A stretch of DNA of 64,000 bases, taken from NCBI GenBank assembly GCA_964057225.1, contig OZ059899.1, positions 16,926,001 to 16,990,000 on the forward strand. Reading direction: 5' to 3'. The DNA comes from Auanema rhodensis. Lineage: Eukaryota; Animalia; Nematoda. A model generated the notes under the pieces. It worked only from the letters and a program-made list of their open reading frames with translations. It was not told the DNA's origin and did no database searches. The translations under genes were made by a program, and so were the position numbers. Shown here piece after piece: positions 18,001-64,000 of the stretch (the stretch's first letter is position 1; every line of letters begins with the position of its first letter).

Positions 18001-19597
18001 CATTTAATTAGCATAAATTAAAGTTCACGTGAATTTCAAAGTCATGGTTACCATGCACCAATATCAATAATATTATGTTTTTAGACTAATATGGACACGC
18101 CGGATTCAAATTTGAAAACAGTATCTCTTTATCTTTTACCGGAATTGAGTTACACAACATGTGCACTTCACTTGTACATTTAATTAGCATAAATTAAAGT
18201 TCACGTGAATTTCAAAGTCATGGTTACCATGCACCAATATCAATAATATTATGTTTTTAGACTAATATGGACACGCCGAATTCAAATTTGAAAACAGTAT
18301 CTCTTTATCTTTCACGGGAAGCGAGTTACATACCATGTGCACTTCACTTCTACATTTAATTAGCATAAATTAAAGTTCACGTGAATTTCAAAGTCATGGT
18401 TACCATGCACCAATATCAATAATATTATGTTTTTAGACTAATATGGACACGCCGAATTCAAATTTGAAAACAGTATCTCTTTATCTTTTACCGGAATTGA
18501 GTTACACAACATGTGCACTTCACTTGTACATTTAATTAGCATAAATTAAAGTTCACGTGAATTTCAAAGTCATGGTTACCATGCACCAATATCAATAAAA
18601 ATTTGTTTTTAGACTAATATGGACATGGGGAATCTAATTTTGAGAACTGCATCTCTTTATCTTTCACGTGAAGCGAGTTACATACCATGTGCACTTCACT
18701 TCTACATTTAATTAGCATAAATTAAAGTTCACGTGAATTTCAAAGTCATGGTTACCATGCACCAATATCAATAATATTATGTTTTTAGACTAATATGGAC
18801 ACGCCGAATTCAAATTTGAAAACAGTATCTCTTTATCTTTTACCGGAATTGAGTTACACAACATGTGCACTTCACTTGTACATTTAATTAGCATAAATTA
18901 AAGTTCACGTGAATTTCAAAGTCATGGTTACCATGCACCAATATCAATAATATTATGTTTTAAGACTAATATGGACACGCGGAATTCAAATTTGAAAACA
19001 GTATCTCTTTATCTTTCACGGGAAGCGAGTTACATACCATGTGAACTTCACTTCTACATTTAATTAGCATAAATTAAAGTTCACGTGAATTTCAAAGTCA
19101 TGGTTACCATACACCAATATCAATAATATTATGTTTTTAGACTAACATGGACACGCCAAATTCAAATTTGAAAACAGTATCTCTTTATCTTTCACGGGAA
19201 GCGAGTTACATACCATGTGCACTTCACTTCTACATTTAATTAGCATAAATTAAAGTTCACGTGAATTTCAAAGTCATGGTTACCATGCACCAATATCAAT
19301 AATATTATGTTTTAAGACTAACATGGACACGCCGAATTCAAATTTGAAAACAGTATCTCTTTATCTTTTACCGGAATTGAGTTACACAACATGTGCACTT
19401 CACTTGTACATTTAATTAGCATAAATTAAAGTTCACGTGAATTTCAAAGTCATGGTTACCATGCACCAATATCAATAATATTATGTTTTTAGACTAATAT
19501 GGACACGCGGAATTCAAATTTGAAAACAGTATCTCTTTATCTTTCACGGGAAGCGAGTTACATACCATGTGCACTTCACTTCTACATTTAATTAGCA
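1..19597. repeat. Tandem satellite array A, 176-bp monomer, about 111 copies (continues beyond the left edge of the window)
   Basis: TTATCTTT(C/T)AC.. recurs at 1, 177, 2641, 5281 ... 18481, i.e. at exact multiples of 176. Monomers differ only by substitutions. The array stops mid-monomer at ...TTTAATTAGCA (19597). Confidence 0.98.
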
Positions 19598-19602
19598 GGG
19601 GT

Positions 19603-43600: not shown

Positions 43601-44284
43601 ATGTACGCTCAACATTGCTTCCAAAAACATTTTGATAAAAATTTTTCCGAAAAATTTCAAGATAATTTTACAAAAAGTAGATGTTTTTAGATTCCTTTTT
43701 TTAAGGCGAAGACGATGGACAATGTTATTCAACGAAAAAATTAATTCTTCAGGGTGAAAATCGAGGATATAAGTGTGAACTTATATCAGTTGATATCTCG
43801 GTGCATTTTTAAGCTAGCGCAAATCTGATAACACAGATCGACGCAGCTTACAAATCCGCATCGAATGCACTATACTACATTGAGAAACGCTCAATACAAA
43901 ATTTATTTATGATTGTTTGAAAAAAGATGCATTAGTGTATGTTGAGTTTCCATGTACACTCAACATTGCTTCCAAAAACATTTTGACAAAAATTTTTTCG
44001 AAAAATTTCAGAATATTTTAGCAAAAAATAGTTGTTTTTAGATTCCTTTTTTCAAGGCAAAGACGATGGACAATGTTATTCAACGAAAAAATTAATTCTG
44101 CAGGGTGAAAATCGAGGATATAAGTGTGAACTTATATCAGTTGATATCTCGGTGCATTTTTAAGCTAGCGCAAATCTGATAACACAGATCGACGCAGCTT
44201 AAAAATCCGCATCGAATGCACTATACTACATTGAGAAACGCTTAATACAAAAATTAGTTATGATCGTTTGAAAAATGATGCATT
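19603..44284. repeat. Tandem satellite array B (left part), 351/347-bp monomers, about 70 copies
   Basis: GGGTGAAAATCGAGG...AATTAATTCT(T/C/G)CA recurs every 351 or 347 bp (rarely 350). The repeated ORF starts (19764, 20115, 20462, 20809...) show the same spacing. Confidence 0.98.
44281..44284. other. Target-site duplication CATT (left copy)
   Basis: The satellite reads GATGCATTAGTG. The left flank is GATG-CATT|TGT.. and the right flank is ..ACA|CATT-AGTG. Confidence 0.93.
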
Positions 44285-44683
44285 TGTAATATCCTTATGT
44301 TGGATATTAATATTCCATGATTGACCCTTAGATTGATGTGTTGTAAAAGAAACAATAAGATTTGAGGAAGAGAGAAAGATTTATTATAAATAAAAAACAT
44401 TTAAACAATAAACAAATAAAGATAAAGATAAGTCCGCCAACTGAAGATTCAGTTGAATGGCAAGCTTATATAGCGAATGTTATCAGCATTTTCCACGAAA
44501 GGTTATAAGTTGTCAATGACAATTATAACTATCTCAGAAAATGCTGAGGCTGCAAAATATAACTGATAACATAATACACTAAGACAAGAAACTAGAATTA
44601 TAAAATATAAAATATAAAACACAGAATAAAGAAATACATAAAAATTATAGAAAGAATAAAGTAAAGAATTATAAAGTATAACA
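44285..44683 (-). repeat. 3' LTR (399 bp)
   Basis: TGTAATATCC...GTATAACA; identical by eye to 53265-53663. Confidence 0.97.
44380..44385 (-). terminator. Candidate polyadenylation signal AATAAA in the 3' LTR
   Basis: TTTATT on + reads AATAAA on -. It lies downstream of the LTR TATA-like box in element orientation. Confidence 0.5.
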
Positions 44684-44696
44684 TGCTACCGCTCTT
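44684..44696 (-). other. Putative (degenerate) polypurine tract
   Basis: Minus-strand AAGAGCGGTAGCA directly abuts the 3' LTR. It is purine-rich but interrupted by pyrimidines. Confidence 0.55.
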
Positions 44697-44740
44697 GAAG
44701 TCCTGTGTCCTCACAGGTATGCATAAGGTTTCCAAAATTT

Positions 44741-45253
44741 TCATAATGTTGCAGCAAGCTTTTTGATGAGATCCTTATGTACTTTTCTCATCTTTCCTTG
44801 ACTCATTTCCAATTCCACATATGAGTTGTATACGCCTGTAATTTTGAACGGTTCATTATAAGTGGGTCGCAATTTGCCGTGAACCGTCATATCCTTCAAT
44901 AGTACCATTTCACCTATTTCAAATATACGTGATGCTATTCGGTTACTATTATTCAGCCGATTTTGTTGTTCAATTGATTTTAATTGAATTTTTTCTTGAA
45001 TAGAATCCCAGGTATTTTTCCGGTTTTCATTTCTTTCCAATAATTCGTCATCTTCAGGAGAATTTAGATGAGGTTGTCCTGGTAATTGACGGTCCATAGG
45101 TAGTCGTGCGTCTCTTCCAAATAGAGCAATGTATGGGCTGATTCCGGTAGTTGTACTTGGGATTGTATTTAATGCGAATGTGATTTTAGGTAATTGTGAG
45201 GCCCATTGAGAGACACGGTTTTCAGCACAAGTGGATAAACATTCCTGGATGGT
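44741..45253 (-). pseudogene. Integrase C-terminal part, in frame with the polyprotein but separated from it by a premature TGA
   Basis: Translation past the stop gives TIQECLSTCAENRVSQWASQLPKITFALNTIPSTTTGISPYIALFGRDARLPMD..., which is the canonical Gypsy IN continuation. It runs into the 44741-45097 ORF with a GPF-like motif (KLRPTYNEPFKI...VHKDLIK). Confidence 0.92.
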
Positions 45254-45800
45254 TCAATGTAGTCGTTCCACTTGACCGTTTGTATTTTTGTGATATGGCA
45301 GAGAGAAGGTTTGTACAATTCCAAATTCGTTGCACATTAACTTGAATTCTTTAGATATAAAATTTCCTCCATTGTCAGACACGATGCTCACTGGTGGTCC
45401 AAAAATGAAGACGAAATTCGTCAGGAACTTTCGGACTGTTTCTTCGGCATTCTGTGTGCGTAAAGGTATGCTCGTTATCCATTTCGAAAAAGCATCTTGA
45501 ATAGAAAGAATATATTTAAATCCATTAGTGCTAGGGGAAAAAGGTCCTGTCACATCCATATGAATCCTATCAAATGGTTTTTGTGGGGTAACAAACTTTC
45601 CATATGGTTCTCTCGTTGTATCATGTTGATTTATTTTCCTTTTTGCGCATGTCAGGCATTGGCTGACGATCTCTTTCGCATCTTCCATCATATTTGTCCA
45701 ATGGAATCTTCTTGATAATGCTGCATGTGTTCTTTTGATTCCTTGATGCGCTCCAATTCTTGCGTCTTCATGAAAAAGTTTCGCAAGTACTTGATTCAAT
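45254..45800 (-). other. Integrase domain (HHCC zinc finger and DDE core)
   Basis: FHED..AHQG..CLTC; IHMD (D at 45554-6), VSDNG (D at 45374-6), QVER (E at 45266-8); 35 residues lie between the second D and E. Confidence 0.95.
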
Positions 45801-48800
45801 GTCTTTTGTTTTGGAATCATAATCCTTGGAGTAAGATATTGTTTGTTAGGTCGAGCATGCAAAACTCCGTCGATAACAATATATCTATCGCTATTAATCT
45901 GTTTAGGTTGTTCCGTTAACATATCAGCAATAGTTTCCTTAATCCATGGTGTTCCTTGTTGTAACTGAATTAGTTTGTCGGTATCCAGAGTTTCCACATT
46001 GGTTACATTTATGAGATAGTTGATGGTTTCTTGGATATCCGTTAAACTTGTTGTTGGCGTTGTCTTCTGTAGCTTCGGTTTAGGACCATCGTTAGCTTCG
46101 TTGCCTATGTATCTGGATAGTGCATCACATACACTATTCATACGTCCTGGACAGTACATAATCACAATATCATATTCCTGGATCATTAACTGATATTTCG
46201 CTAGTCTTCCAATAAGATCTCTTCTACTCATTAGACTGGTTAGTGGTCGATGATCCGTTATTAGCTTAGTTGACGTGCCTAAAACATATGTGCGAAATTG
46301 TTGTAATGCGTAGACGAGTGCCAAAGCTTCTAATTCGATAGGTGGGTATTCTCTTTCTGTAGGTGAGAGCTTCCTACTTGCGAACGCAACAGGGTGTAAT
46401 CTATTTCCTGTATCTTGTAGTAAGACTGCTCCAATTGCAATAGTACTAGCGTCACTTTCAATAACAAAAGGTGCTCCATTTGTTGGTGGCTTCAGAACTG
46501 GTGCTGTGCATAGAGCTTTCTTGAGAGTCTCGAATGCTTTTTCACGTTCTTCCGTCCATTCGAAATCTTGATCCTTGTGTGTGAGTTGATACAACGGTTC
46601 GGCTATTTTGGCGTAGTCTCTGATGAATCGCCGAAAATAATTTGTCATTCCAAGGAATGAACGAATAGCGGTGACCGTTTTAGGAGTTGAAAATTTCTTA
46701 ACGGCTGTAATTTTTGATGGATCAGGTTGTATTCCATCGCGACCAATTATAAATCCAAGAAATTTAACTTGTGTAGCTGCAAATTTGCATTTACTTAGTT
46801 TTGCTTTCATTCCTAATCCTTGTAAAGCTTGTAACACTTCTTCTATATCCTCCAGATGTTGTTCAGCTGTGTTTGATATAATGAGTAGATCATCCAGATA
46901 AACAAAAAGTCGACATTTTACTTGATTTTGCAAATAGCGAACAGCTGATTGAAATGTATGTGGAGCTCCACAGAGACCCATCGGCATTCTGCAATATTGA
47001 TAAACTCCTGATGAGGTCACAAATGCAGTGAGGTGACGGTCTTCTTCACGTAAAGGAATTTGAAAAAATCCCGATACGAGATCGATGTTTGTGAAGTATC
47101 GAGCTCCTGCAGTGCTGTCGATTATTTCTGGTATATGAAGAATAGAATAAGTCTGTTTCTGTGTGACACTATTGAGTGCACGGAAGTCCGTTACAAAGCG
47201 GAATGAGTTGTCTTTCTTCTTGACTAAGACGACTGGACTTGTAAAACTTGATGTTGATGTTTCTATTACTCCTTGGTCCAGCATTTCTTTTACTTGACGT
47301 TCAACTTCATCCTGTTTACCCAAAGGAACTCGATATGATCGAGATTTGGGCAGGTCCATATCGGTTCTCAAAGTGATTGAATGTTCTATTGGTCCTTTGA
47401 ATAATCCAATGTTCCGATCTTCGTTAAAAAAAGCATTTTTGAATCTTCTCAACATAGTTTTGAGATTTTGACGTTGATTTTTAGATAGATCCGTTGATTC
47501 GAATTTTAAGTTATCGAAAGGATTCTTCTCAAAAATAGGCAATTTATCTGACCAATCAGCTTCTGGTGGAATATAGTCCGGTATATGTGGGATTCCAATT
47601 TCTTCTGGTATTTTTCCTTTTCCAATAATGGTGTTTCCTGTTAACTTCACCTCATAATTTGCTGTATTGATGGCGAATATTGTGAGTGGTGAAGTCTTGA
47701 TAGCAGTAGGTGTGAATTGAATAGGTCCATTTCCACATCGTATAAGAGCGTATTGTTTTGGTTGTAGTTCTTTTGCCAATTGTAGACGAATCATAGCTTT
47801 AGTTCGGGGTGGAATAATAGATTCTCTAATGTTTATAATTGAAACGGTGTCTGAACTGATGCGAAAGCTCTTCTGGTTAGCGGATAATAATGGTAGAAAA
47901 TGGTTTCCAACTATTAATTGCTTGCGTAGAGCTTGTAGAGAAGTTGTTATTCCTTTTTCTTCTAATGCTTTCATGATGTCCAAACCAAGTAACATTTCAG
48001 TAGGACAATGTTTATCCTCAGAGATTAAAAATGTGTGTGAAAGATGGTATCCAGCAATAACAATGTCCAACGTTATTGTACCCAGAAAGTTGAATATTGA
48101 TCCATTTGCTGCGGTGGCAGAGATTTTAGTTGAGTTGAAATTCTCTTTTCCTAAATAGCGTACTGATGATTCCTTCAAATATGAAACAGATGCTCCGCTA
48201 TCCCATAAAGCTACGAGTCCTCTGCCTTCTGCTTCAATTCTTATATATGGGAGTTCTCTTTTGTTCGTTGCACAGCATCCAACAAAAGGTATAATAATAG
48301 GAATAAAAGTGATGACAGTAGGAAAATATCTTCGAATAGTTTCGTCGTCGGCTGGAACATCGATGTCAGCGTTGAGTAGTTCGTGTTGTTCAACTGCATT
48401 CACATTTAAGATAGGAACTTTCTCTTTGATATAAGATACAACAATAATGTATAATGCTGATCCAAAGATTAATATAACTATCATAACACCTGCAGAGATA
48501 AACATTCTGTTGAGGGATCCAGCAAAGAAATCAACTCCTCGTTCCCATAGTGATGATGCAATATTTTGAGTAGAACTAAAAAGTTCGTTACTTTTTGTAA
48601 ACCATTCTGATAAGCCTGGCAAATTCGCTTGATTCGTGATAACTCGTAGAAAATTTCTATGAGGATTGGTAGCGAAAATGTGTCCATATGTTAAGCTTAT
48701 TGTTCTAACTAAGTTTTCATCGGTGATATTTTCATAAAGATTTCTTTGTGAAAATCGAATGGCTGCTAGATCGGGATACTGATCTGAACCAATGTTTAAA

Positions 48801-51800
48801 GCAGTTACGTTTGTAACTCCGTTGAGGGATTTCCATTCTCCATCCTCTTTCCATATATCATTTTCTACTGTTTCACATGGAATTTCAGTTCCATATGCTT
48901 CCAAATCTGCTGAATCTTGAGGTGCAAAGTAGAGGCGGTCATCATCCGTGATGACGGGTGTTTCTAAATAACACTTATCTTTGTATGTGTGGTTGCGATA
49001 AATGTGAATTGGTTCTATTGGCTGACAGGTTGAAACCCGAATAAGATTCCGTCCAATTATTCGAGCCACTACATCATCTCGTTGCATAATAGATCGGATA
49101 GCAATCGTAGGATTGATATTAAATATAGCTTGCCATGTCTTAATAAGTTCAAGTTGAGCATGACATATGCTGTGATGTTGATGATGAAATTCTTCGACCA
49201 GTATGGTTCTCATTCGTTCAAATCCATAGTTGAGTTTGTTGATGGTAGTTAATGCATCTCGATGTCGAAGTATAGTATTCTGGTGATCAGTTAAGTGAGT
49301 GCCGAATAATTCTTGAGCTTTCTCTATGCTTCCAATCATGGGTTGCATTGATGTCATCCCTTGAATAGTACTAATTGTTTGTTTTGTAGTAGATGATGTA
49401 TTTACAACAGGTTTTGAGGTAGCACTAAGAAATCGTGCAGTTGGCGTAGTTTTAGTGGTGATAGAGCGACTGAATACTCTTTTTGTAATCTCTTCAGGTG
49501 CTGGTTTTGAAAACCATGACATTAAATCAGTTAATTGTTTAGCGTCAATATTGATGTTACGGCTGTAGAGATCTTCTTTATTCGAAGGCATCGGTATTCC
49601 AAAATTGGTTTCTCGGTTTCTGAGTGTCCAGTTATCCAACAGCTTTAATTTCATTTCATATACTTGATCTTTCACTTGTCGTTGCATAAAATGACTATGA
49701 AAGAACAGTTTCATTCGATAATATTCTATCAGTTGAGGTTGAGAATACTGATAGCGTAGTTCACGAAGTAATTCTTTTGCTTTATATACCACAGAACGTG
49801 GATCTCCAAATGTGAAGTTGAGATGGTTTTGATATACTGTGAATATCAAAAATTCGAGTGGTGGCACATATTCTGTTTCGGATAAGATTGCAGGTATTTG
49901 TATCAATTCCCATAATTTATCTCTTGCAACCGAAATTGTAGAATTGCCTGGTTTAACTATTCTTTTTATATAATTGATAGGAAGTCGGTGTGCTAGTTGA
50001 CCGATGACAAAACTAGGCTCCATTTGTTCGATCCACATTTTTGTAATCATCTTGCTTTCTTCTCCTCCTAGAGCATGTAGTAAGAGAATATTCGGATCGC
50101 GGAAGTCTTTTAAATTTGCCCAGTAATCTATAGTATGATCAGTAATGTTCAAAATATGGACAGCTGACAGCAAAAATTGATGATATCGAGCAATAACAGT
50201 CAGGTTCTGATATTCGTTGCTAACTGATTGATAGTGATACCAGTTATGAATATATCGTATGGTATTTCCGCCAGACGTGACAGTATATCTAGCAAACGGT
50301 AGATCCAATATTTGAATAGGAGTTAACTTATATTCCATTTCTGAGCGAAATGACGCAATTAAGGATGAATTTGTTGAACGTTTATAGCGTTGGCGTGAAG
50401 GATCCATTTGATTATCCAAATAACTTGTTAGATCCAGTAGAGAATATGCATGCGGATAATCAATAAACGAGACAAGAGTCTCAGTAGTGGATTCAAAAAT
50501 TGGTGAAGAAAAACAAGATTGAGTTGTAGTAGATGCTGAGGTGTTGGCTAAGACAAGTGCTGTTTCTAGACTTGATATTAGCAGTGTTTGATCTCCAAGT
50601 ATTCCATACAGAGGTCCAATACGTGTGTATTGGCATGGTGCTCGGGGTGTGGGTGGTTTCCAAACTACTGAACCATCTCCAAATGTACAGCTTCCCATTT
50701 GAGCTTTACAGCCTTCGGCGTTGACAATTAAGTCAGATACAATAGTATTGTCCTTTAAATTTGTAATAACTCCTCGCTCCATCACAAATTGAGTTAAGTT
50801 GGCGCATTGAGTAAAACTGAAGAAACGTTCCGGTTCATATACTGGCTTAGGAGCTTCATATGTAAGTGGATTAGCGCTCAACAGTTTTTCATTTTTCCAT
50901 TTCTTGTCTCGAGCAGCTATACGGCATTCTTCTACAGATACATATCCATTACCAATGATGGTGTCATTGCTTTCTCGGAACCAAAATTGATCCGTTACAC
51001 ATAATCGATAGATGCGTGTATAACATTTCCACGCTTCCCATGTTACGACGGTTTGTTTAGGAATGAACAATTCAACGTTAACTTGATGAGCTTGTTGAAT
51101 TGCTTTCCGTTGGCATCCTGTTATCTCTGGTGGTGTCATCAGAATTCCTCCTTTATGAGCTAAACATAGTTGATATGAAGCATTCACAGTGGGAAGCAGA
51201 AATGTGCAGATTATTGTTGTGAGCAGGAATGGTAATGCAATAGTATTTATATTGAATCGAGGTTTCCATCGTCGTTGATTGCCTTGATTCTCTCTTGGAT
51301 AATTGTCGCGATTATTCCTGGCAAAGTTGTCTCGATTTTCTCTTTGATAATTGTTGCGAGGTTCTCTCGAATGGTGATTACTCTCCATTGAGTAGTTGTT
51401 TCCATAATTTTGTCGAGGGCCAGAGTTCCTGCTGAATTTATTTTTGAAATTCTTCCAAGGGTTTCTTGAATTGTTGCCATTGTTCCGTTCGAAATCTCGT
51501 GGCTGCTGATGGTTCCTTTGGTTCCTATTTTCCTTCATGGTGATCTTTTGAACTGCAGAGATCAACTCTTGCATAGTTGAGTTTTCTTCATGCTGTTTTT
51601 TATAGTTAGCACGAATTGCTTCTTCAAAACGTGCTGTCCTTTTTGCTTCCTCATAAGTCTTCGGATCTTTTCCTTGAACAATTATGCCTAAATCAGCGTT
51701 CAATCCATTTAAGAAAGCTGATCTTAATATGAGCTCTCTTTCTCGATCAGTTGGGCTCATAATACTGGAAGCCATTTCTTCCAAGTATGAGGCAAACTGA

Positions 51801-52267
51801 GTAACAGTTTTCTCTCCTTGCGTCGAGCGTAGCAACTTCGCGATCGTGAAATTCCTTTCCGTGGCAGGGCAAAGTAACTCTGCCAATTGTGAAACAAGGT
51901 CTTTCCAAGGTCCTCGTTCACGAATTTCGGAAGGAATCGAGTTATATGCAGAGATCGCAGAATCATTCTGCTGAAGCAGCAGAGGAAGAAGAAAAATTCT
52001 TTCAATTACAGAAAGTCCCGCAGCATTCGCGAATCGGTTAAATATATCGATGTACGATCGAAAGCTTCGGCTACCATCGTATTTGGGGCAGTGTGGACTG
52101 CCTAGAACTTTTGTTAAGTTTTTGGTCAACTCTGGAGATGCCATTAAATTAGGCGTTTCCAGAGTTGAATCTCTGTTTGATTGCTCATGTGGTCTCATGT
52201 TGAGTAGGAGCTTCAGAGGTAGTTTTTCGCGCTGGGGAGTTTTTTCTTTTTTCGGTGTTACAGCCAA
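45254..52267 (-). CDS. Gag-Env-Pro-Pol polyprotein (2337 aa as called from a TTG; frame is open from 52444; first ATG at 52198; candidate ACG start at 52426; would extend to 44741 without the TGA)
   Basis: Gag CA-like PKYDG and LRSAFLNGL; signal peptide and TM-bounded glycoprotein; protease WDSGAS..LLGLD; RT SPVVLVKK, FVTDFRALN, DLVSGFFQI, MPMGL, YLDD; RNase H ESDAS, ELEALA, TDHRPL, DALSR; IN H-H-C-C and D,D(35)E. Confidence 0.95.
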   Translation of the reverse strand: MAVTPKKEKTPQREKLPLKLLLNMRPHEQSNRDSTLETPNLMASPELTKNLTKVLGSPHCPKYDGSRSFRSYIDIFNRFANAAGLSVIERIFLLPLLLQQNDSAISAYNSIPSEIRERGPWKDLVSQLAELLCPATERNFTIAKLLRSTQGEKTVTQFASYLEEMASSIMSPTDRERELILRSAFLNGLNADLGIIVQGKDPKTYEEAKRTARFEEAIRANYKKQHEENSTMQELISAVQKITMKENRNQRNHQQPRDFERNNGNNSRNPWKNFKNKFSRNSGPRQNYGNNYSMESNHHSREPRNNYQRENRDNFARNNRDNYPRENQGNQRRWKPRFNINTIALPFLLTTIICTFLLPTVNASYQLCLAHKGGILMTPPEITGCQRKAIQQAHQVNVELFIPKQTVVTWEAWKCYTRIYRLCVTDQFWFRESNDTIIGNGYVSVEECRIAARDKKWKNEKLLSANPLTYEAPKPVYEPERFFSFTQCANLTQFVMERGVITNLKDNTIVSDLIVNAEGCKAQMGSCTFGDGSVVWKPPTPRAPCQYTRIGPLYGILGDQTLLISSLETALVLANTSASTTTQSCFSSPIFESTTETLVSFIDYPHAYSLLDLTSYLDNQMDPSRQRYKRSTNSSLIASFRSEMEYKLTPIQILDLPFARYTVTSGGNTIRYIHNWYHYQSVSNEYQNLTVIARYHQFLLSAVHILNITDHTIDYWANLKDFRDPNILLLHALGGEESKMITKMWIEQMEPSFVIGQLAHRLPINYIKRIVKPGNSTISVARDKLWELIQIPAILSETEYVPPLEFLIFTVYQNHLNFTFGDPRSVVYKAKELLRELRYQYSQPQLIEYYRMKLFFHSHFMQRQVKDQVYEMKLKLLDNWTLRNRETNFGIPMPSNKEDLYSRNINIDAKQLTDLMSWFSKPAPEEITKRVFSRSITTKTTPTARFLSATSKPVVNTSSTTKQTISTIQGMTSMQPMIGSIEKAQELFGTHLTDHQNTILRHRDALTTINKLNYGFERMRTILVEEFHHQHHSICHAQLELIKTWQAIFNINPTIAIRSIMQRDDVVARIIGRNLIRVSTCQPIEPIHIYRNHTYKDKCYLETPVITDDDRLYFAPQDSADLEAYGTEIPCETVENDIWKEDGEWKSLNGVTNVTALNIGSDQYPDLAAIRFSQRNLYENITDENLVRTISLTYGHIFATNPHRNFLRVITNQANLPGLSEWFTKSNELFSSTQNIASSLWERGVDFFAGSLNRMFISAGVMIVILIFGSALYIIVVSYIKEKVPILNVNAVEQHELLNADIDVPADDETIRRYFPTVITFIPIIIPFVGCCATNKRELPYIRIEAEGRGLVALWDSGASVSYLKESSVRYLGKENFNSTKISATAANGSIFNFLGTITLDIVIAGYHLSHTFLISEDKHCPTEMLLGLDIMKALEEKGITTSLQALRKQLIVGNHFLPLLSANQKSFRISSDTVSIINIRESIIPPRTKAMIRLQLAKELQPKQYALIRCGNGPIQFTPTAIKTSPLTIFAINTANYEVKLTGNTIIGKGKIPEEIGIPHIPDYIPPEADWSDKLPIFEKNPFDNLKFESTDLSKNQRQNLKTMLRRFKNAFFNEDRNIGLFKGPIEHSITLRTDMDLPKSRSYRVPLGKQDEVERQVKEMLDQGVIETSTSSFTSPVVLVKKKDNSFRFVTDFRALNSVTQKQTYSILHIPEIIDSTAGARYFTNIDLVSGFFQIPLREEDRHLTAFVTSSGVYQYCRMPMGLCGAPHTFQSAVRYLQNQVKCRLFVYLDDLLIISNTAEQHLEDIEEVLQALQGLGMKAKLSKCKFAATQVKFLGFIIGRDGIQPDPSKITAVKKFSTPKTVTAIRSFLGMTNYFRRFIRDYAKIAEPLYQLTHKDQDFEWTEEREKAFETLKKALCTAPVLKPPTNGAPFVIESDASTIAIGAVLLQDTGNRLHPVAFASRKLSPTEREYPPIELEALALVYALQQFRTYVLGTSTKLITDHRPLTSLMSRRDLIGRLAKYQLMIQEYDIVIMYCPGRMNSVCDALSRYIGNEANDGPKPKLQKTTPTTSLTDIQETINYLINVTNVETLDTDKLIQLQQGTPWIKETIADMLTEQPKQINSDRYIVIDGVLHARPNKQYLTPRIMIPKQKTLNQVLAKLFHEDARIGAHQGIKRTHAALSRRFHWTNMMEDAKEIVSQCLTCAKRKINQHDTTREPYGKFVTPQKPFDRIHMDVTGPFSPSTNGFKYILSIQDAFSKWITSIPLRTQNAEETVRKFLTNFVFIFGPPVSIVSDNGGNFISKEFKLMCNEFGIVQTFSLPYHKNTNGQVERLH
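46110..46480 (-). other. RNase H domain (Ty3/Gypsy type)
   Basis: FVIESDASTIAIGAVLLQ, PVAFASRKL, ELEALALVYAL, ITDHRPL, CDALSR. Confidence 0.93.
46700..47350 (-). other. Reverse transcriptase domain
   Basis: YRVP..EMLDQGVI..SPVVLVKKKD..FRFVTDFRALN..DLVSGFFQI..TAF..MPMGL..VYLDD (46889-46900)..KCKF..FLG. Confidence 0.97.
47960..48250 (-). other. Retropepsin aspartic protease domain
   Basis: LPYIRIEAEGRGLVALWDSGASVSYL (catalytic D at 48200-2), ATAANGS, MLLGLDIM. Confidence 0.92.
48428..51241 (-). other. Envelope glycoprotein domain, class III fusion-protein-like (aa ~343-1280 of the ORF)
   Basis: Hydrophobic signal IALPFLLTTIICTFLLPTVNA|SYQLC; Cys-rich ectodomain with more than 10 N-x-S/T sequons; furin-type RYKR (50378-50389); gB-like block C..Q....W....NP..I.......ARIIG....VSTC...CY..P...C (48850-49200); C-terminal TM MFISAGVMIVILIFGSALYIIVVSYI (48428-48505). 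Confidence 0.85.
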
Positions 52268-52426
52268 GTGTGTTGGCGTTTTTTCGTCGTCCGATGGACT
52301 TAAATCGTTGTCAAACGAGTCGTCACTATCGGGAAAAGGAAATCGAGAAATACGATTTCTCTTGTCTCTTAATCTTTGAGAGGTACGGAAAGGCGTATCC
52401 GTATAATTATTCTTGGAGGTTGCCGT
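51245..52426 (-). other. Gag domain (capsid-like core plus Asn/Arg-rich C-terminus; no CCHC knuckle)
   Basis: CPKYDGSRSFRSYIDIF..., QGEKTVTQFASYL, AFLNGL, PKTYEEAKRTA are typical Gypsy capsid motifs. Confidence 0.85.
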
Positions 52427-53251
52427 TTTGGAAAAGGAGGAAAGTCAGAACAATCTACAATGTAAAATAGTGGAATAAGTTAGTAAACAAGATAAGAATA
52501 TGAATAGTTAATAGTGAATAAATTAGTGAATAACGTGAAAAAAAAAATCAAAGAAAAAAAAAGATATATAATAATATGGGTTGAAGATTAATTAATTAAT
52601 GAACTCATACAAAAACAAACTATAGAGAGGAAAAAAAAAAGTGAATATAATTAATTGTTAAGATGATGATAGGATATGATTATGTGACAATGTGATTCAT
52701 AAATTAGAGAAGTGAGTATGGCGGACAAATCAAAATCTCAATTGTTACTGAATAACAATGAATTACCAAACAAGGCATCTTTCAAATTCCAAAGTCTTTG
52801 TTTCAACTTGAATCAACAATCAAAAAATTATGAGAGGAAGGTTTAAATTCAAATATGACAAATGATACAGCGGATGTTATTTTCTTACAGTGGCCATTCT
52901 GTTAGTACAAACTTGTAATCTTTATCAAAAATATCGCAAATTGACTTTATTAAGGTCCAATTTTGCTTATATCAAACAGCTTTTCCATTTCCAAAAAATA
53001 TATATTTTTCGCCACAATGAAAAATCAAAAGTACAACTGCGCAGAAACAAAAAGAAATCGAAAAGTTGGCCAATTCAGTATCTCACCCTTGCGCAAAATA
53101 TCAACCCTGTTTATTAAAAAAATGAGTGAGACCCTTCGTACTGAATTGGAAAGAGAGGTGGTAGCCCAGGGAAATAGCTCAAAAAAATTCTCTTTAACTG
53201 AATGATAATTCATAATTTAATCGAGTTCGAAAAATCGTAAAAAGATTCTAA

Positions 53252-53264
53252 GGTGGAACCTCCA
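53252..53264 (-). promoter_or_regulatory. Primer-binding site complementary to the 3' end of tRNA-Gln
   Basis: Minus strand TGGAGGTTCCACC directly follows the 5' LTR. The + strand GGTGGAACCTCCA matches the metazoan tRNA-Gln 3' end (...CTCGGTGGAACCT-CCA) as I recall it. Confidence 0.85.
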
Positions 53265-53663
53265 TGTAATATCCTTATGTTGGATATTAATATTCCATGA
53301 TTGACCCTTAGATTGATGTGTTGTAAAAGAAACAATAAGATTTGAGGAAGAGAGAAAGATTTATTATAAATAAAAAACATTTAAACAATAAACAAATAAA
53401 GATAAAGATAAGTCCGCCAACTGAAGATTCAGTTGAATGGCAAGCTTATATAGCGAATGTTATCAGCATTTTCCACGAAAGGTTATAAGTTGTCAATGAC
53501 AATTATAACTATCTCAGAAAATGCTGAGGCTGCAAAATATAACTGATAACATAATACACTAAGACAAGAAACTAGAATTATAAAATATAAAATATAAAAC
53601 ACAGAATAAAGAAATACATAAAAATTATAGAAAGAATAAAGTAAAGAATTATAAAGTATAACA
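53265..53663 (-). repeat. 5' LTR (399 bp)
   Basis: Identical to 44285-44683; TG...CA termini; adjacent to the PBS. Confidence 0.97.
53446..53452 (-). promoter_or_regulatory. Candidate TATA box (TATATAA) of the LTR promoter
   Basis: Minus-strand CTATATAAGC in mid-LTR, about 80 nt upstream of the AATAAA, which is the usual U3-R arrangement. Confidence 0.6.
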
Positions 53664-53667
53664 CATT
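53664..53667. other. Target-site duplication CATT (right copy)
   Basis: Immediately follows the LTR end ACA, and the satellite monomer resumes in register. Confidence 0.93.
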
Positions 53668-56600
53668 AGTGTATGTTGAGTTTCCATGTACACTCAACAT
53701 TGCTTCCAAAAACATTTTGACAAAAATTTTTTCGAAAAATTTCAAAATAATTTCGCAAAAAGTAAATGTTTTTAGATTCCTTTTTTTAAGGCAAAGACGA
53801 TGGACAATGTTATTCAACGAAAAAATTAATTCTGCAGGGTGAAAATCGAGGATATAAGTGTGAACTTATATCAGTTGATATCTCGGTGCATTTTTAAGCT
53901 AGCGCAAATCTGATAACACAGATCGACGCAGCTTAAAAATCCGCATCGAATGCACTATACTACATTGAGAAACGCTTAATACAAAAATTAGTTATGATCG
54001 TTTGAAAAATGATGCATTAGTGTATGTTGAGTTTCCATGTACACTCAACATTGCTTCCAAAAACATTTTGACAAAAATTTTTTCGAAAAATTTCAAAATA
54101 ATTTCGCAAAAAGTAAATGTTTTTAGATTCCTTTTTTTAAGGCAAAGACGATGGACAATGTTATTCAACGAAAAAATTAATTCTGCAGGGTGAAAATCGA
54201 GGATATAAGTGTGAACTTATATCAGTTGATATCTCGGTGCATTTTTAAGCTAGCGCAAATCTGATAACACAGATCGACGCAGCTTAAAAATCCGCATCGA
54301 ATGCACTTATACTACATTGAGAAACGCTTAATACAAAAATTAGTTATGATCGTTTGAAAAATGATGCATTAGTGTATGTTGAGTTTCCATGTACACTCAA
54401 CATTGCTTCCAAAAACATTTTGACAAAAATTTTTTCGAAAAATTTCAAAATAATTTCGCAAAAAGTAAATGTTTTTAGATTCCTTTTTTTAAGGCAAAGA
54501 CGATGGACAATGTTATTCAACGAAAAAATTAATTCTGCAGGGTGAAAATCGAGGATATAAGTGTGAACTTATATCAGTTGATATCTCGGTGCATTTTTAA
54601 GCTAGCGCAAATCTGATAACACAGATCGACGCAGCTTAAAAATCCGCATCGAATGCACTATACTACATTGAGAAACGCTTAATACAAAAATTAGTTATGA
54701 TCGTTTGAAAAATGATGCATTAGTGTATGTTGAGTTTCCATGTACACTCAACATTGCTTCCAAAAACATTTTGACAAAAATTTTTTCGAAAAATTTCAAA
54801 ATAATTTCGCAAAAAGTAAATGTTTTTAGATTCCTTTTTTTAAGGCAAAGACGATGGACAATGTTATTCAACGAAAAAATTAATTCTGCAGGGTGAAAAT
54901 CGAGGATATAAGTGTGAACTTATATCAGTTGATATCTCGGTGCATTTTTAAGCTAGCGCAAATCTGATAACACAGATCGACGCAGCTTAAAAATCCGCAT
55001 CGAATGCACTATACTACATTGAGAAACGCTTAATACAAAAATTAGTTATGATCGTTTGAAAAATGATGCATTAGTGTATGTTGAGTTTCCATGTACACTC
55101 AACATTGCTTCCAAAAACATTTTGACAAAAATTTTTTCGAAAAATTTCAAAATAATTTCGCAAAAAGTAAATGTTTTTAGATTCCTTTTTTCAAGGCAAA
55201 GACGATGGACAATGTTATTCAACGAAAAAATTAATTCTGCAGGGTGAAAATCGAGGATATAAGTGTGAACTTATATCAGTTGATATCTCGGTGAATTTTT
55301 AAGCTAGCGCAAATCTGATAACACAGATCGACGCAGCTTAAAAATCCGCATCGAATGCACTATACAACATTGAGAAACGCTTAATACAAAAATTAGTTAT
55401 GATCGTTTGAAAAAAGACGCATTAGTGTATGTTGAGTTTCCATGTACACTCAACATTGCTTCCAAAAACATTTTGACAAAAATTTTTTCGAAAAATTTCA
55501 AAATAATTTCGCAAAAAGTAAATGTTTTTAGATTCCTTTTTTTAAGGCAAAGACGATGGACAATGTTATTCAACGAAAAAATTAATTCTGCAGGGTGAAA
55601 ATCGAGGATATAAGTGTGAACTTATATCAGTTGATATCTCGGTGCATTTTTAAGCTAGCGCAAATCTGATAACACAGATCGACGCAGCTTAAAAATCCGC
55701 ATCGAATGCACTATACAACATTGAGAAACGCTTAATACAAAAATTAGTTATGATCGTTTGAAAAAAGACGCATTAGTGTATGTTGAGTTTCCATGTACAC
55801 TCAACATTGCTTCCAAAAACATTTTGACAAAAATTTTTTCGAAAAATTTCAAAATAATTTCGCAAAAAGTAAATGTTTTTAGATTCCTTTTTTTAAGGCA
55901 AAGACGATGGACAATGTTATTCAACGAAAAAATTAATTCTGCAGGGTGAAAATCGAGGATATAAGTGTGAACTTATATCAGTTGATATCTCGGTGCATTT
56001 TTAAGCTAGCGCAAATCTGATAACACAGATCGACGCAGCTTAAAAATCCGCATCGAATGCACTATACTACATTGAGAAACGCTTAATACAAAAATTAGTT
56101 ATGATCGTTTGAAAAAAGACGCATTAGTGTATGTTGAGTTTCCATGTACACTCAACATTGCTTCCAAAAACATTTTGACAAAAATTTTTTCGAAAAATTT
56201 CAAAATAATTTCGCAAAAAGTAAATGTTTTTAGATTCCTTTTTTTAAGGCAAAGACGATGGACAATGTTATTCAACGAAAAAATTAATTCTTCAGGGTGA
56301 AAATCGAGGAAGTTCACACTTATATCAGTTGATATCTCGGTGAATTTTTAAGCTAGCGCAAATCTGATAACACAGATCGACGCAGCTTAAAAATCCGCAT
56401 CGAATGCACTATATTACATTGAGAAACGCTCAATACAAAAATTAGTTATGATTGTTTGAAAAATGATGCATTAGTGTATGTTGAGTTTCCATGTACACTC
56501 AACATTGCTTCCAAAAACATTTTGACAAAAATTTTCCCGAAAAATTTCAAGATAATTTCACAAAAAGTAGATGTTTTTAGATTCATTTTTTCAAGGCAAA

Positions 56601-59600
56601 GATGATGGACAATGTTATTCAACGAAAAAATTAATTCTTCAGGGTGAAAATCGAGGAAGTTCACACTTATATCAGTTGATATCTCGGTGAATTTTTAAGC
56701 TAGCGCAAATCTGATAACACAGATCGACGCAGCTTAAAAATCCGCATCGAATGCACTATACAACATTGAGAAACGCTTAATACAAAAGTTAGTTATGATC
56801 GTTTGGAAAATGATGCATTAGTGTATGTTGAGTTTCCATGTACACTCAACATTGCTTCCAAAAACATTTTGACAAAAATTTTTTCGAAAAATTTCAGAAT
56901 ATTTTAGCAAAAAATAGTTGTTTTTAGATTCCTTTTTTCAAGGCAAAGACGATGGACAATGTTATTCAACGAAAAAATTAATTCTTCAGGGTGACAATCG
57001 AGGATATAAGTGTGAACTTATATCAGTTGATATCTCGGTGAATTTTTAAGCTAGCGCAAATCTGATAACACAGATCGACGCAGCTTAAAAATCCACATCG
57101 AATGCACTATACAACATTGAGAAACGCTTAATACAAAAATTAGTTATGATCGTTTGAAAAAAGACGCATTAGTGTATGTTGATTTTCCATGTACACTCAA
57201 CATTGCTTCCAAAAACATTTTGACAAAAATTTTTTCGAAAAATTTCAAAATAATTTCGCAAAAAGTAAATGTTTTTAGATTCCTTTTTTTAAGGCAAAGA
57301 CGATGGACAATGTTATTCAACGAAAAAATTAATTCTGCAGGGTGAAAATCGAGGATATAAGTGTGAACTTATATCAGTTGATATCTCGGTGCATTTTTAA
57401 GCTAGCGCAAATCTGATAACACAGATCGACGCAGCTTAAAAATCCGCATCGAATGCACTATACTACATTGAGAAACGCCCAATACAAAAATTAGTTATGA
57501 TCGTTTGAAAAATGATGCATTAGTGTATGTTGAGTTTCCATGTACACTCAACATTGCTTCCAAAAACATTTTGACAAAAATTTTTTCGAAAAATTTCAAA
57601 ATAATTTCGCAAAAAGTAAATGTTTTTAGATTCCTTTTTTCAAGGCAAAGACGATGGACAATGTTATTCAACGAAAAAATTAATTCTGCAGGGTGAAAAT
57701 CGAGGATATAAGTGTGAACTTATATCAGTTGATATCTCGGTGAATTTTTAAGCTAGCGCAAATCTGATAACACAGATCGACGCAGCTTAAAAATCCGCAT
57801 CGAATGCACTATACAACATTGAGAAACGCTTAATACAAAAATTAGTTATGATCGTTTGAAAAAAGACGCATTAGTGTATGTTGAGTTTCCATGTACACTC
57901 AACATTGCTTCCAAAAACATTTTGACAAAAATTTTTTCGAAAAATTTCAAAATAATTTCGCAAAAAGTAAATGTTTTTAGATTCCTTTTTTTAAGGCAAA
58001 GACGATGGACAATGTTATTCAACGAAAAAATTAATTCTGCAGGGTGAAAATCGAGGATATAAGTGTGAACTTATATCAGTTGATATCTCGGTGCATTTTT
58101 AAGCTAGCGCAAATCTGATAACACAGATCGACGCAGCTTAAAAATCCGCATCGAATGCACTATACAACATTGAGAAACGCTTAATACAAAAATTAGTTAT
58201 GATCGTTTGAAAAAAGACGCATTAGTGTATGTTGAGTTTCCATGTACACTCAACATTGCTTCCAAAAACATTTTGACAAAAATTTTTTCGAAAAATTTCA
58301 AAATAATTTCGCAAAAAGTAAATGTTTTTAGATTCCTTTTTTTAAGGCAAAGACGATGGACAATGTTATTCAACGAAAAAATTAATTCTGCAGGGTGAAA
58401 ATCGAGGATATAAGTGTGAACATATATCAGTTGATATCTCGGTGAATTTTTAAGCTAGCGCAAATCTGATAACACAGATCGACGCAGCTTAAAAATCCGC
58501 ATCGAATGCACTATACAACATTGAGAAACGCTTAATACAAAAATTAGTTATGATCGTTTGAAAAAAGACGCATTAGTGTATGTTGAGTTTCCATGTACAC
58601 TCAACATTGCTTCCAAAAACATTTTGACAAAAATTTTTTCGAAAAATTTCAAAATAATTTCGCAAAAAGTAAATGTTTTTAGATTCCTTTTTTTAAGGCA
58701 AAGACGATGGACAATGTTATTCAACGAAAAAATTAATTCTTCAGGGTGAAAATCGAGGAAGTTCACACTTATATCAGTTGATATCTCGGTGAATTTTTAA
58801 GCTAGCGCAAATCTGATAACACAGATCGACGCAGCTTAAAAATCCGCATCGAATGCACTATATTACATTGAGAAACGCTCAATACAAAAATTAGTTATGA
58901 TTGTTTGAAAAATGATGCATTAGTGTATGTTGAGTTTCCATGTACACTCAACATTGCTTCCAAAAACATTTTGACAAAAATTTTCCCGAAAAATTTCAAG
59001 ATAATTTCACAAAAAGTAGATGTTTTTAGATTCATTTTTTCAAGGCAAAGATGATGGACAATGTTATTCAACGAAAAAATTAATTCTTCAGGGTGAAAAT
59101 CGAGGAAGTTCACACTTATATCAGTTGATATCTCGGTGAATTTTTAAGCTAGCGCAAATCTGATAACACAGATCGACGCAGCTTAAAAATCCGCATCGAA
59201 TGCACTATACAACATTGAGAAACGCTTAATACAAAAGTTAGTTATGATCGTTTGGAAAATGATGCATTAGTGTATGTTGAGTTTCCATGTACACTCAACA
59301 TTGCTTCCAAAAACATTTTGACAAAAATTTTTTCGAAAAATTTCAGAATATTTTAGCAAAAAATAGTTGTTTTTAGATTCCTTTTTTCAAGGCAAAGACG
59401 ATGGACAATGTTATTCAACGAAAAAATTAATTCTTCAGGGTGACAATCGAGGATATAAGTGTGAACTTATATCAGTTGATATCTCGGTGAATTTTTAAGC
59501 TAGCGCAAATCTGATAACACAGATCGACGCAGCTTAAAAATCCACATCGAATGCACTATACAACATTGAGAAACGCTTAATACAAAAATTAGTTATGATC

Positions 59601-62600
59601 GTTTGAAAAAAGACGCATTAGTGTATGTTGATTTTCCATGTACACTCAACATTGCTTCCAAAAACATTTTGACAAAAATTTTTTCGAAAAATTTCAAAAT
59701 AATTTCGCAAAAAGTAAATGTTTTTAGATTCCTTTTTTTAAGGCAAAGACGATGGACAATGTTATTCAACGAAAAAATTAATTCTGCAGGGTGAAAATCG
59801 AGGATATAAGTGTGAACTTATATCAGTTGATATCTCGGTGCATTTTTAAGCTAGCGCAAATCTGATAACACAGATCGACGCAGCTTAAAAATCCGCATCG
59901 AATGCACTATACTACATTGAGAAACGCCCAATACAAAAATTAGTTATGATCGTTTGAAAAATGATGCATTAGTGTATGTTGAGTTTCCATGTACACTCAA
60001 CATTGCTTCCAAAAACATTTTGACAAAAATTTTTTCGAAAAATTTCAAAATAATTTCGCAAAAAGTAAATGTTTTTAGATTCCTTTTTTTAAGGCAAAGA
60101 CGATGGACAATGTTATTCAACGAAAAAATTAATTCTGCAGGGTGAAAATCGAGGATATAAGTGTGAACTTATATCAGTTGATATCTCGGTGCATTTTTAA
60201 GCTAGCGCAAATCTGATAACACAGATCGACGCAGCTTAAAAATCCACATCGAATGCACTATACAACATTGAGAAACGTTTAATACAAAAATTAGTTATGA
60301 TCGTTTGAAAAATGATGCATTAGTGTATGTTGAGTTTCCATGTACACTCAACATTGCTTCCAAAAACATTTTGACAAAAATTTTTTCGAAAAATTTCAAA
60401 ATAATTTCGCAAAAAGTAAATGTTTTTAGATTCCTTTTTTTAAGGCAAAGACGATGGACAATGTTATTCAACGAAAAAATTAATTCTGCAGGGTGAAAAT
60501 CGAGGATATAAGTGTGAACTTATATCAGTTGATATCTCGGTGCATTTTTAAGCTAGCGCAAATCTGATAACACAGATCGACGCAGCTTAAAAATCCGCAT
60601 CGAATGCACTATACAACATTGAGAAACGCTTAATACAAAAATTAGTTATGATCGTTTGAAAAAAGACGCATTAGTGTATGTTGAGTTTCCATGTACACTC
60701 AACATTGCTTCCAAAAACATTTTGACAAAAATTTTTTCGAAAAATTTCAAAATAATTTCGCAAAAAGTAAATGTTTTTAGATTCCTTTTTTTAAGGCAAA
60801 GACGATGGACAATGTTATTCAACGAAAAAATTAATTCTGCAGGGTGAAAATCGAGGATATAAGTGTGAACATATATCAGTTGATATCTCGGTGAATTTTT
60901 AAGCTAGCGCAAATCTGATAACACAGATCGACGCAGCTTAAAAATCCGCATCGAATGCACTATACAACATTGAGAAACGCTTAATACAAAAATTAGTTAT
61001 GATCGTTTGAAAAAAGACGCATTAGTGTATGTTGAGTTTCCATGTACACTCAACATTGCTTCCAAAAACATTTTGACAAAAATTTTTTCGAAAAATTTCA
61101 AAATAATTTCGCAAAAAGTAAATGTTTTTAGATTCCTTTTTTTAAGGCAAAGACGATGGACAATGTTATTCAACGAAAAAATTAATTCTTCAGGGTGAAA
61201 ATCGAGGAAGTTCACACTTATATCAGTTGATATCTCGGTGAATTTTTAAGCTAGCGCAAATCTGATAACACAGATCGACGCAGCTTAAAAATCCGCATCG
61301 AATGCACTATATTACATTGAGAAACGCTCAATACAAAAATTAGTTATGATTGTTTGAAAAATGATGCATTAGTGTATGTTGAGTTTCCATGTACACTCAA
61401 CATTGCTTCCAAAAACATTTTGACAAAAATTTTCCCGAAAAATTTCAAGATAATTTCACAAAAAGTAGATGTTTTTAGATTCATTTTTTCAAGGCAAAGA
61501 TGATGGACAATGTTATTCAACGAAAAAATTAATTCTTCAGGGTGAAAATCGAGGAAGTTCACACTTATATCAGTTGATATCTCGGTGAATTTTTAAGCTA
61601 GCGCAAATCTGATAACACAGATCGACGCAGCTTAAAAATCCGCATCGAATGCACTATACAACATTGAGAAACGCTTAATACAAAAGTTAGTTATGATCGT
61701 TTGGAAAATGATGCATTAGTGTATGTTGAGTTTCCATGTACACTCAACATTGCTTCCAAAAACATTTTGACAAAAATTTTTTCGAAAAATTTCAGAATAT
61801 TTTAGCAAAAAATAGTTGTTTTTAGATTCCTTTTTTCAAGGCAAAGACGATGGACAATGTTATTCAACGAAAAAATTAATTCTTCAGGGTGACAATCGAG
61901 GATATAAGTGTGAACTTATATCAGTTGATATCTCGGTGAATTTTTAAGCTAGCGCAAATCTGATAACACAGATCGACGCAGCTTAAAAATCCACATCGAA
62001 TGCACTATACAACATTGAGAAACGCTTAATACAAAAATTAGTTATGATCGTTTGAAAAAAGACGCATTAGTGTATGTTGATTTTCCATGTACACTCAACA
62101 TTGCTTCCAAAAACATTTTGACAAAAATTTTTTCGAAAAATTTCAAAATAATTTCGCAAAAAGTAAATGTTTTTAGATTCCTTTTTTTAAGGCAAAGACG
62201 ATGGACAATGTTATTCAACGAAAAAATTAATTCTGCAGGGTGAAAATCGAGGATATAAGTGTGAACTTATATCAGTTGATATCTCGGTGCATTTTTAAGC
62301 TAGCGCAAATCTGATAACACAGATCGACGCAGCTTAAAAATCCGCATCGAATGCACTATACTACATTGAGAAACGCCCAATACAAAAATTAGTTATGATC
62401 GTTTGAAAAATGATGCATTAGTGTATGTTGAGTTTCCATGTACACTCAACATTGCTTCCAAAAACATTTTGACAAAAATTTTTTCGAAAAATTTCAAAAT
62501 AATTTCGCAAAAAGTAAATGTTTTTAGATTCCTTTTTTTAAGGCAAAGACGATGGACAATGTTATTCAACGAAAAAATTAATTCTGCAGGGTGAAAATCG

Positions 62601-64000
62601 AGGATATAAGTGTGAACTTATATCAGTTGATATCTCGGTGCATTTTTAAGCTAGCGCAAATCTGATAACACAGATCGACGCAGCTTAAAAATCCACATCG
62701 AATGCACTATACAACATTGAGAAACGTTTAATACAAAAATTAGTTATGATCGTTTGAAAAATGATGCATTAGTGTATGTTGAGTTTCCATGTACACTCAA
62801 CATTGCTTCCAAAAACATTTTGACAAAAATTTTTTCGAAAAATTTCAAAATAATTTCGCAAAAAGTAAATGTTTTTAGATTCCTTTTTTTAAGGCAAAGA
62901 CGATGGACAATGTTATTCAACGAAAAAATTAATTCTGCAGGGTGAAAATCGAGGATATAAGTGTGAACTTATATCAGTTGATATCTCGGTGCATTTTTAA
63001 GCTAGCGCAAATCTGATAACACAGATCGACGCAGCTTAAAAATCCGCATCGAATGCACTATACAACATTGAGAAACGCTTAATACAAAAATTAGTTATGA
63101 TCGTTTGAAAAAAGACGCATTAGTGTATGTTGAGTTTCCATGTACACTCAACATTGCTTCCAAAAACATTTTGACAAAAATTTTTTCGAAAAATTTCAAA
63201 ATAATTTCGCAAAAAGTAAATGTTTTTAGATTCCTTTTTTTAAGGCAAAGACGATGGACAATGTTATTCAACGAAAAAATTAATTCTGCAGGGTGAAAAT
63301 CGAGGATATAAGTGTGAACATATATCAGTTGATATCTCGGTGAATTTTTAAGCTAGCGCAAATCTGATAACACAGATCGACGCAGCTTAAAAATCCGCAT
63401 CGAATGCACTATACAACATTGAGAAACGCTTAATACAAAAATTAGTTATGATCGTTTGAAAAAAGACGCATTAGTGTATGTTGAGTTTCCATGTACACTC
63501 AACATTGCTTCCAAAAACATTTTGACAAAAATTTTTTCGAAAAATTTCAAAATAATTTCGCAAAAAGTAAATGTTTTTAGATTCCTTTTTTTAAGGCAAA
63601 GACGATGGACAATGTTATTCAACGAAAAAATTAATTCTTCAGGGTGAAAATCGAGGAAGTTCACACTTATATCAGTTGATATCTCGGTGCATTTTTAAGC
63701 TAGCGCAAATCTGATAACACAGATCGACGCAGCTTAAAAATCCACATCGAATGCACTATACAACATTGAGAAACGTTTAATACAAAAATTAGTTATGATC
63801 GTTTGAAAAATGATGCATTAGTGTATGTTGAGTTTCCATGTACACTCAACATTGCTTCCAAAAACATTTTGACAAAAATTTTTTCGAAAAATTTCAAAAT
63901 AATTTCGCAAAAAGTAAATGTTTTTAGATTCCTTTTTTTAAGGCAAAGACGATCGACAATGTTATTCAACGAAAAAATTAATTCTGCAGGGTGAAAATCG
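53664..64000. repeat. Tandem satellite array B (right part), about 29 monomers, mostly organised as a 2449-bp 7-mer higher-order repeat
   Basis: Same monomer as the left part. Diagnostic variants recur every 2449 bp (ORFs at 57154/59603/62052 and 56109/58558/61007/63456); 2449 = 5x351 + 2x347. Confidence 0.97.

Follow-up and report, generated by a model that had tools for sequence, protein, structure and literature searches.

What kind of element has interrupted a satellite array in the genome of the nematode Auanema rhodensis, and how could a single reading frame that leads from Gag through an envelope protein into Pol be translated, cut and packaged? The window analysed here, a stretch of 64,000 nucleotides, is nearly all satellite, with a 176-bp array at 1-19597 and a 351-bp array at 19626-44284 and 53664-64000. 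The two arrays (111 copies of the shorter unit and about 100 of the longer) are unrelated, the longer unit is no dimer of the shorter one and holds short palindromes, and a short G-rich junction lies between them near 19597-19626. A single LTR element of 9,379 bp on the minus strand (53663-44285) interrupts the 351-bp array, and its LTR ends agree with the coordinates 44285..53663 given in a preliminary description of this DNA; no further fragments of it were found elsewhere in the 64-kb window. As in other Ty3/gypsy (Metaviridae) elements, LTRs, a primer binding site and a target duplication are present (Table 1). The LTRs are identical at 399/399 positions, and removal of the element with one copy of the 4-bp duplication restores a satellite unit at 80/80 bases. 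Chary and Hayashi (eLife 2026, PMC13524379) tabulate in their supplement, for two Caenorhabditis elements, a 12-nt tRNA-Gln end that is the reverse complement of this primer site; tRNA-Gln is named there in 8 of 36 nematode rows, two of them with this 12-mer. On the basis of the identical LTRs, the restored satellite unit and the primer site match, the insertion is clean and recent.

Table 1. Coordinates of the element and associated features in the window; residues are numbered along the long frame.
Feature	Position	Strand	Remarks
5' LTR	53265..53663	(-)	399 bp, TG...CA; same sequence as 3' LTR
3' LTR	44285..44683	(-)	399 bp
Target duplication, 4 bp	44281..44284; second copy 53664-53667		In 351-bp satellite
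Primer binding site, tRNA-Gln	53253..53264	(-)	12 bases just after 5' LTR
5' leader	52445..53252	(-)	T-rich; acceptor-like TTGTAG near 52455; indels among runs
Gag	51251..52198	(-)	From first Met (residue 83) to about residue 398; putative start
Internal signal-like segment (putative)	51185..51241	(-)	Residues 402-420, hydropathy; motif INTI just before
Env ectodomain, gB/class III (predicted)	48494..51178	(-)	Residues about 423-1317; 14 conserved Cys
Variable Env insert	49295-50375	(-)	Residues about 690-1050, after furin-like site
Env transmembrane helix (putative)	48437..48493	(-)	Residues 1318-1336; hydropathy 2.75; AlphaFold helix pLDDT 92-95
Env tail and linker	48326..48436	(-)	Motif VNAV at 1348-1351; without P[TS]AP
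Third hydrophobic segment	48269..48325	(-)	Residues 1374-1392, directly ahead of protease
Aspartic protease	47969..48238	(-)	DSGA at 1415
Reverse transcriptase core	46745..47224	(-)	YLDD at 1849
RNase H	46172..46558	(-)	Pfam
Integrase zinc finger and D-D(35)-E core	45257..45802	(-)	Pfam and motifs
In-frame stop inside integrase	45254..45256	(-)	Three residues past catalytic Glu
Integrase frame past stop	44741..45253	(-)	170 codons, same frame
Polypurine tract, weak	44684..44696	(-)	Purines 10/13
Antisense intron, 43 nt, GT-AG	45147..45189	(+)	X12 and X13 contigs
Antisense intron, 46 nt, GT-AG	45309..45354	(+)	X12 and X13 contigs
Deleted sibling form	45073..51325 missing		6,253 bp; 6-bp microhomology; not GT-AG on sense strand

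A stop-free frame of 2,396 codons extends from 52444 to 45257 on the minus strand, with its first Met at residue 83. Pfam orders Gag, Monjiviricetes_fusion, protease, RT, RNase H and integrase along it: a weak Retrotrans_gag match under the Pfam cut-off at residues 169-249 (E 0.0011), the protease at 1403-1492, RT at 1741-1900, RNase H at 1963-2091, the integrase zinc finger at 2215-2271 and the integrase core at 2288-2385. The order PR-RT-RH-IN, with catalytic motifs in place, is that of Ty3/gypsy Pol. The 82 open codons ahead of the first Met (52199-52444) include Arg-rich and acidic stretches and have an acceptor-like site upstream; the real start of Gag may be upstream of this Met or non-ATG. 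In the leader, a 62-codon frame is disrupted by indels in other runs. One contig of run X10 that covers leader and 5' LTR (53090-53643) has 22 other letters and 13 gaps relative to the window and represents a more distant subfamily, from the same study as X1.

The coding region had initially been read as one uninterrupted frame. This reading stands from Gag to the integrase core, but the codon at 45256-45254 is a stop and leaves 170 residues beyond it. Because contigs of five runs (X1, X2, X5, X12 and X13, from four studies) differ at this codon, the stop appears to be specific to this copy or to the assembly. For new transposition the window copy would need integrase from another copy.

Two hydrophobic peaks, at residues 402-420 and 1318-1336, enclose an insert of 935 residues, close to the original estimate of about 940; given the base composition, 954 open codons would arise by chance with a probability of about 1e-29. 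Within it Pfam recognizes Monjiviricetes_fusion (residues 1051-1208, E 9.5e-12), and a profile of 110 aligned Env sequences compared with the PDB matched herpesvirus gB best (E 1.6e-19) and rhabdovirus G as well. A fold search with an AlphaFold model of Env likewise returned gB at the top in the PDB and nyamivirus and rhabdo-like glycoproteins in BFVD, with whole-chain TM-scores to gB that are low (0.16-0.18). The model, built from 45 rows, has a mean pLDDT of 67.9, with values below 50 in 309 of 889 residues; it is confident at residues of about 424-680 and 1060-1210 and poor across much of the intervening insert. Each of the 14 cysteines is conserved in a majority of the aligned relatives (54/78 to 88/91 rows). 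Altogether, the profile matches and the model identify the insert of about 935 residues as a predicted gB-type (class III) envelope protein, with a signal segment and a TM helix assigned from hydropathy and the model only. A furin-like RYKR at 686-689 has counterparts between the conserved Env halves in 52 of 100 relatives. The variable insert that follows it is modelled as largely helical at low confidence and ends in a Thr/Ser-rich stretch; by a measure that gives 397 for the window Env, its length ranges from 8 to 504 across 100 relatives. A search of the ESM Atlas with this insert gave a best value of 0.84 and no lead.

Is the Env block an integral part of the element, or could it be a nested insertion, a viral fragment captured by one copy, or a misassembly? 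Such an origin could be suspected from the first search with the Env region, a word-indexed one among 1,317-4,193-residue proteins that returned 0 of 5,111 candidates, and from the middle 360 residues, whose sole relative among 267 fetched proteins is P0123. The blank result reflects a limit of sensitivity, since a full HMMER scan with Env found 225 matches. Env stands upstream of PR in 25 of the best 120 of 679 Pol relatives, the top ones with this arrangement coming from Caenorhabditis, Diploscapter and Auanema. Among the 267 fetched proteins (147 by the Env query), 63 match both Env and Pol queries and Env comes first in every one, a count that covers proteins whose Pol matched the queries and that is based on gene predictions in which frames may have been joined. 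The same order in all 63 informative relatives argues strongly against an insertion peculiar to this copy, as do the conserved cysteines, the flat depth over env and pol, and the contigs of independent studies that bridge gag and env (one of X1, 48289-51409, and one of X2, 48289-51307). We consider a nested, captured or misassembled Env block to be extremely improbable. At the other end of the insert, from TM to protease, cover comes from a pair of X1 contigs with 30 nt in common, no single listed contig spanning from the TM to the protease active site. No indels within the ORF are listed for X1, X2 or X5. Some long Env matches have Env late in the chain and no match to the Pol queries. Five other proteins (P0149, P0185, P0194, P0253 and P0256) carry the same Env type late in chains of 2,500-2,800 residues and are likely env-after-pol elements of another lineage.

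The element has env between gag and protease in a frame open to the integrase core, and its RT groups with those of nematode env-before-pol elements. In a FastTree phylogeny of RT-RH (127 rows aligning over at least 330 residues), the element belongs to a group of 12 rows (support 99) that includes proteins of Caenorhabditis, Diploscapter, Auanema and Heterorhabditis, the nearest row being a Heterorhabditis protein at 66% identity. This group is nested in a larger one of 36 rows (support 95), of which 31 carry Env upstream and the remaining 5 are partial proteins. The hosts in the tree are partly shared with those of PMC13524379, the rows not being matched to its elements or to published NERV. 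Pfam, the profile search, the tree and PMC13524379 bear out three points proposed from the sequence: the order of the genes, the nature of the insert as an Env and a tie to a nematode clade already described. The GAG-ENV-POL layout is real, and it is already in print (PMC13524379).

How would such a polyprotein sit in the membrane? The signal and TM assignments are putative, resting on hydropathy and one AlphaFold model, with signal cleavage inferred after Ala422. N-glycosylation sequons number 13 in 896 Env residues versus 3 in 997 Pol residues. Hydropathy and sequon spread are both consistent with the topology suggested at the outset, in which Gag would be cytosolic, Env lumenal and Pol cytosolic, but a third hydrophobic peak at 1374-1392, missed earlier, complicates it. 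This segment raises the possibility that the subclade has a second, leaky signal ahead of the protease, one that would divert part of Pol to the ER so that the level of Pol, compared with Gag and Env, would be reduced by topology and not by a frameshift. Its hydropathy reaches at least 1.4 in 10 of 12 subclade members versus 1 of 22 others, and the small residues that follow it are signal-peptide-like; however, the threshold was set after the fact and the members are kin. Moreover, two or three prolines fall within the segment, whose aligned counterpart in other clades is a non-hydrophobic (F/Y)-(I/V)-P-x-(I/V) motif with an invariant proline (35/35 rows), and AlphaFold renders the segment as low-confidence coil rather than helix (pLDDT 47-48), which is weak evidence. 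A leaky signal is, in our view, unlikely. The proline motif resembles the N-terminal cut site and strand of retropepsins, and we favor a model in which the third segment would likewise supply the N-terminal cut site and strand of the protease.

Taken together, these data very probably describe a young Ty3/gypsy element of the published nematode GAG-ENV-POL (NERV-type) kind, whose one frame carries Gag, a fusion protein of gB type and Pol and whose polyprotein is predicted to pass through the ER membrane and be cut there. We envision a scenario in which Gag is synthesised first, in the cytosol; segment 402-420 would then start translocation, with signal peptidase releasing the Env N-terminus, and helix 1318-1336 would act as a stop-transfer that returns Pol to the cytosol. 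Furin would cut Env at 686-689, and the element's own protease would cut at [IV]N-x-[IVL], freeing Gag and Pol from their membrane tethers. Such a scheme would require no frameshift, and no slippery heptamer was found at the gag/env or env/pol junction. Of the five copies of [IV]N-x-[IVL] in the window protein, three lie at junctions, one ahead of the signal segment, one past the TM helix and one separating RH from IN. Within the 36-row group the motif precedes the signal segment in 12 of 16 scorable relatives (1.7 expected), and it follows the TM in 21 of 30 relatives (2.8 expected; 2.4 in shuffled linkers), in counts for a motif that was chosen after inspection of these same sequences and among relatives that are not independent. 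By analogy, the motif is likely the site of the element's own protease. P[TS]AP, an ESCRT-I budding motif, is absent from the entire window protein, but 9 of 30 relatives have it in the linker that joins TM and protease (0.12 in shuffled linkers).

It had been proposed that a single polyprotein could make an infectious particle with Gag, Env and Pol at 1:1:1. This ratio is doubtful. A joint that omits 45073-51325 is present in DNA-type runs X1, X2, X5 and X10 (three studies) and also in X12, in a form that has diverged from the window (in X10, 29 other letters in 566). Its microhomology and lack of splice ends make a template-switch deletion the likely origin. A retro-copied splice was considered for this joint and ruled out, with GT-AG at 0 of 17 shifts. 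The joint cuts Gag at residue 373, ahead of the anchor, and window letters then give a stop two residues on, so that the deleted form would yield a predicted soluble Gag. Such elements are likely a second source of extra, unanchored Gag, and the real ratio therefore need not be 1:1:1.

The proportions could also be set at the level of RNA, if a spliced, env-skipping message were the main source of Gag-Pol and the full frame served for Env only. A GT that resembles a donor (51381) has the same phase as a TTCCAG that resembles an acceptor (48352), as would happen by chance one time in three, but three runs guessed to be RNA, with thin cover and an uninformative lack of env cover, contain no such joint, and the sole env-skipping joint seen carries microhomology and comes from DNA runs. 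We regard an env-skipping message as quite improbable. A more elaborate proposal is that ratios are set without a frameshift by two unreported means, the leaky second signal before the protease, sending part of Pol to the ER, and a Gag-only partner element, cut before the anchor, that gives free capsid, with budding signals in the Env tail instead of Gag; as a whole this appears improbable as well.

The element may also be transcribed in the opposite direction. Contigs of X12 and X13, two runs of one study whose RNA status is guessed and whose depth is 5-7, share two small introns on the plus strand, and a loose end of 14 bases in X12 fits a third antisense intron of 46 bases (region 45012-45354). 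These joints point to a spliced antisense transcript over the integrase, possibly originating in the 3' LTR; a role in silencing is a guess. An antisense spliced gene was rejected as an explanation: its longest frame, of 94 codons, is near the unspliced antisense frames of 83-85. An 81-codon antisense frame is also present, and antisense acceptors show no enrichment (8 versus 12.6 in shuffles), while sense-strand ones are slightly low in number (5 versus 9.8; as low in 11 of 300 shuffles). A literature search on late domains in errantiviruses and on antisense or deleted nematode elements returned nothing specific among the papers listed, which does not imply absence from print.

This element shares one question with the rest of its group, namely how a chain of Gag, Env and Pol that is threaded through the membrane would be cut and packaged. 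The junction motif, the P[TS]AP in the tails of relatives and the Gag-only form offer specific, testable guesses on both counts.

NERV elements are among the close known systems. They reportedly have a continuous gag-env-pro-pol ORF with a nyamivirus-like Env, are said to occur in chromadorean nematodes, and reportedly carry additional ORFs for a small protein or an Upf1-like helicase, perhaps not in all members. The nyamivirus G fold matches of the window Env agree with such an Env. Neither kind of additional ORF was recognized here, where no frame reaches helicase size and the small frames considered were the 62-codon leader frame and the 81-codon antisense frame. Env before Pol in nematodes is common to the NERV clade and the window, according to PMC13524379, which credits the nematode case to Sacco et al. 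2022 (J Gen Virol) and describes elements of Nematoda, Bryozoa and Platyhelminthes with a gB-type Env and the order GAG-ENV-POL. The window shares with its nematode elements a Ty3/gypsy Pol, a gB-type Env between gag and pol with signal segment and TM helix, LTRs and a tRNA-Gln site, and differs from them in the integrase stop. Its supplement tabulates 36 nematode GAG-ENV-POL elements, with no row for Heterorhabditis, Auanema or Diploscapter, the genera nearest to the window in our tree, and the portion of the article used here does not treat polyprotein processing. The window element adds one family to this survey, likely from a rhabditid host that its nematode rows leave unnamed, and may already be among its rows through the entry 'Rhabditida sp.' (PMC13524379). 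Drosophila errantiviruses (gypsy) and the nematode Atlas viruses (belpaoviruses) are likewise Env-carrying invertebrate LTR elements; unlike the window, gypsy has an F-type Env 3' of pol, as described in PMC13524379, and Atlas viruses have a phlebovirus-like Env where the window's is of gB type. The profile and fold matches liken the window Env to class III fusogens, herpesvirus gB and mononegavirus G, from which it differs by about 360 additional residues, mostly helical or of low confidence, past the furin-like site.
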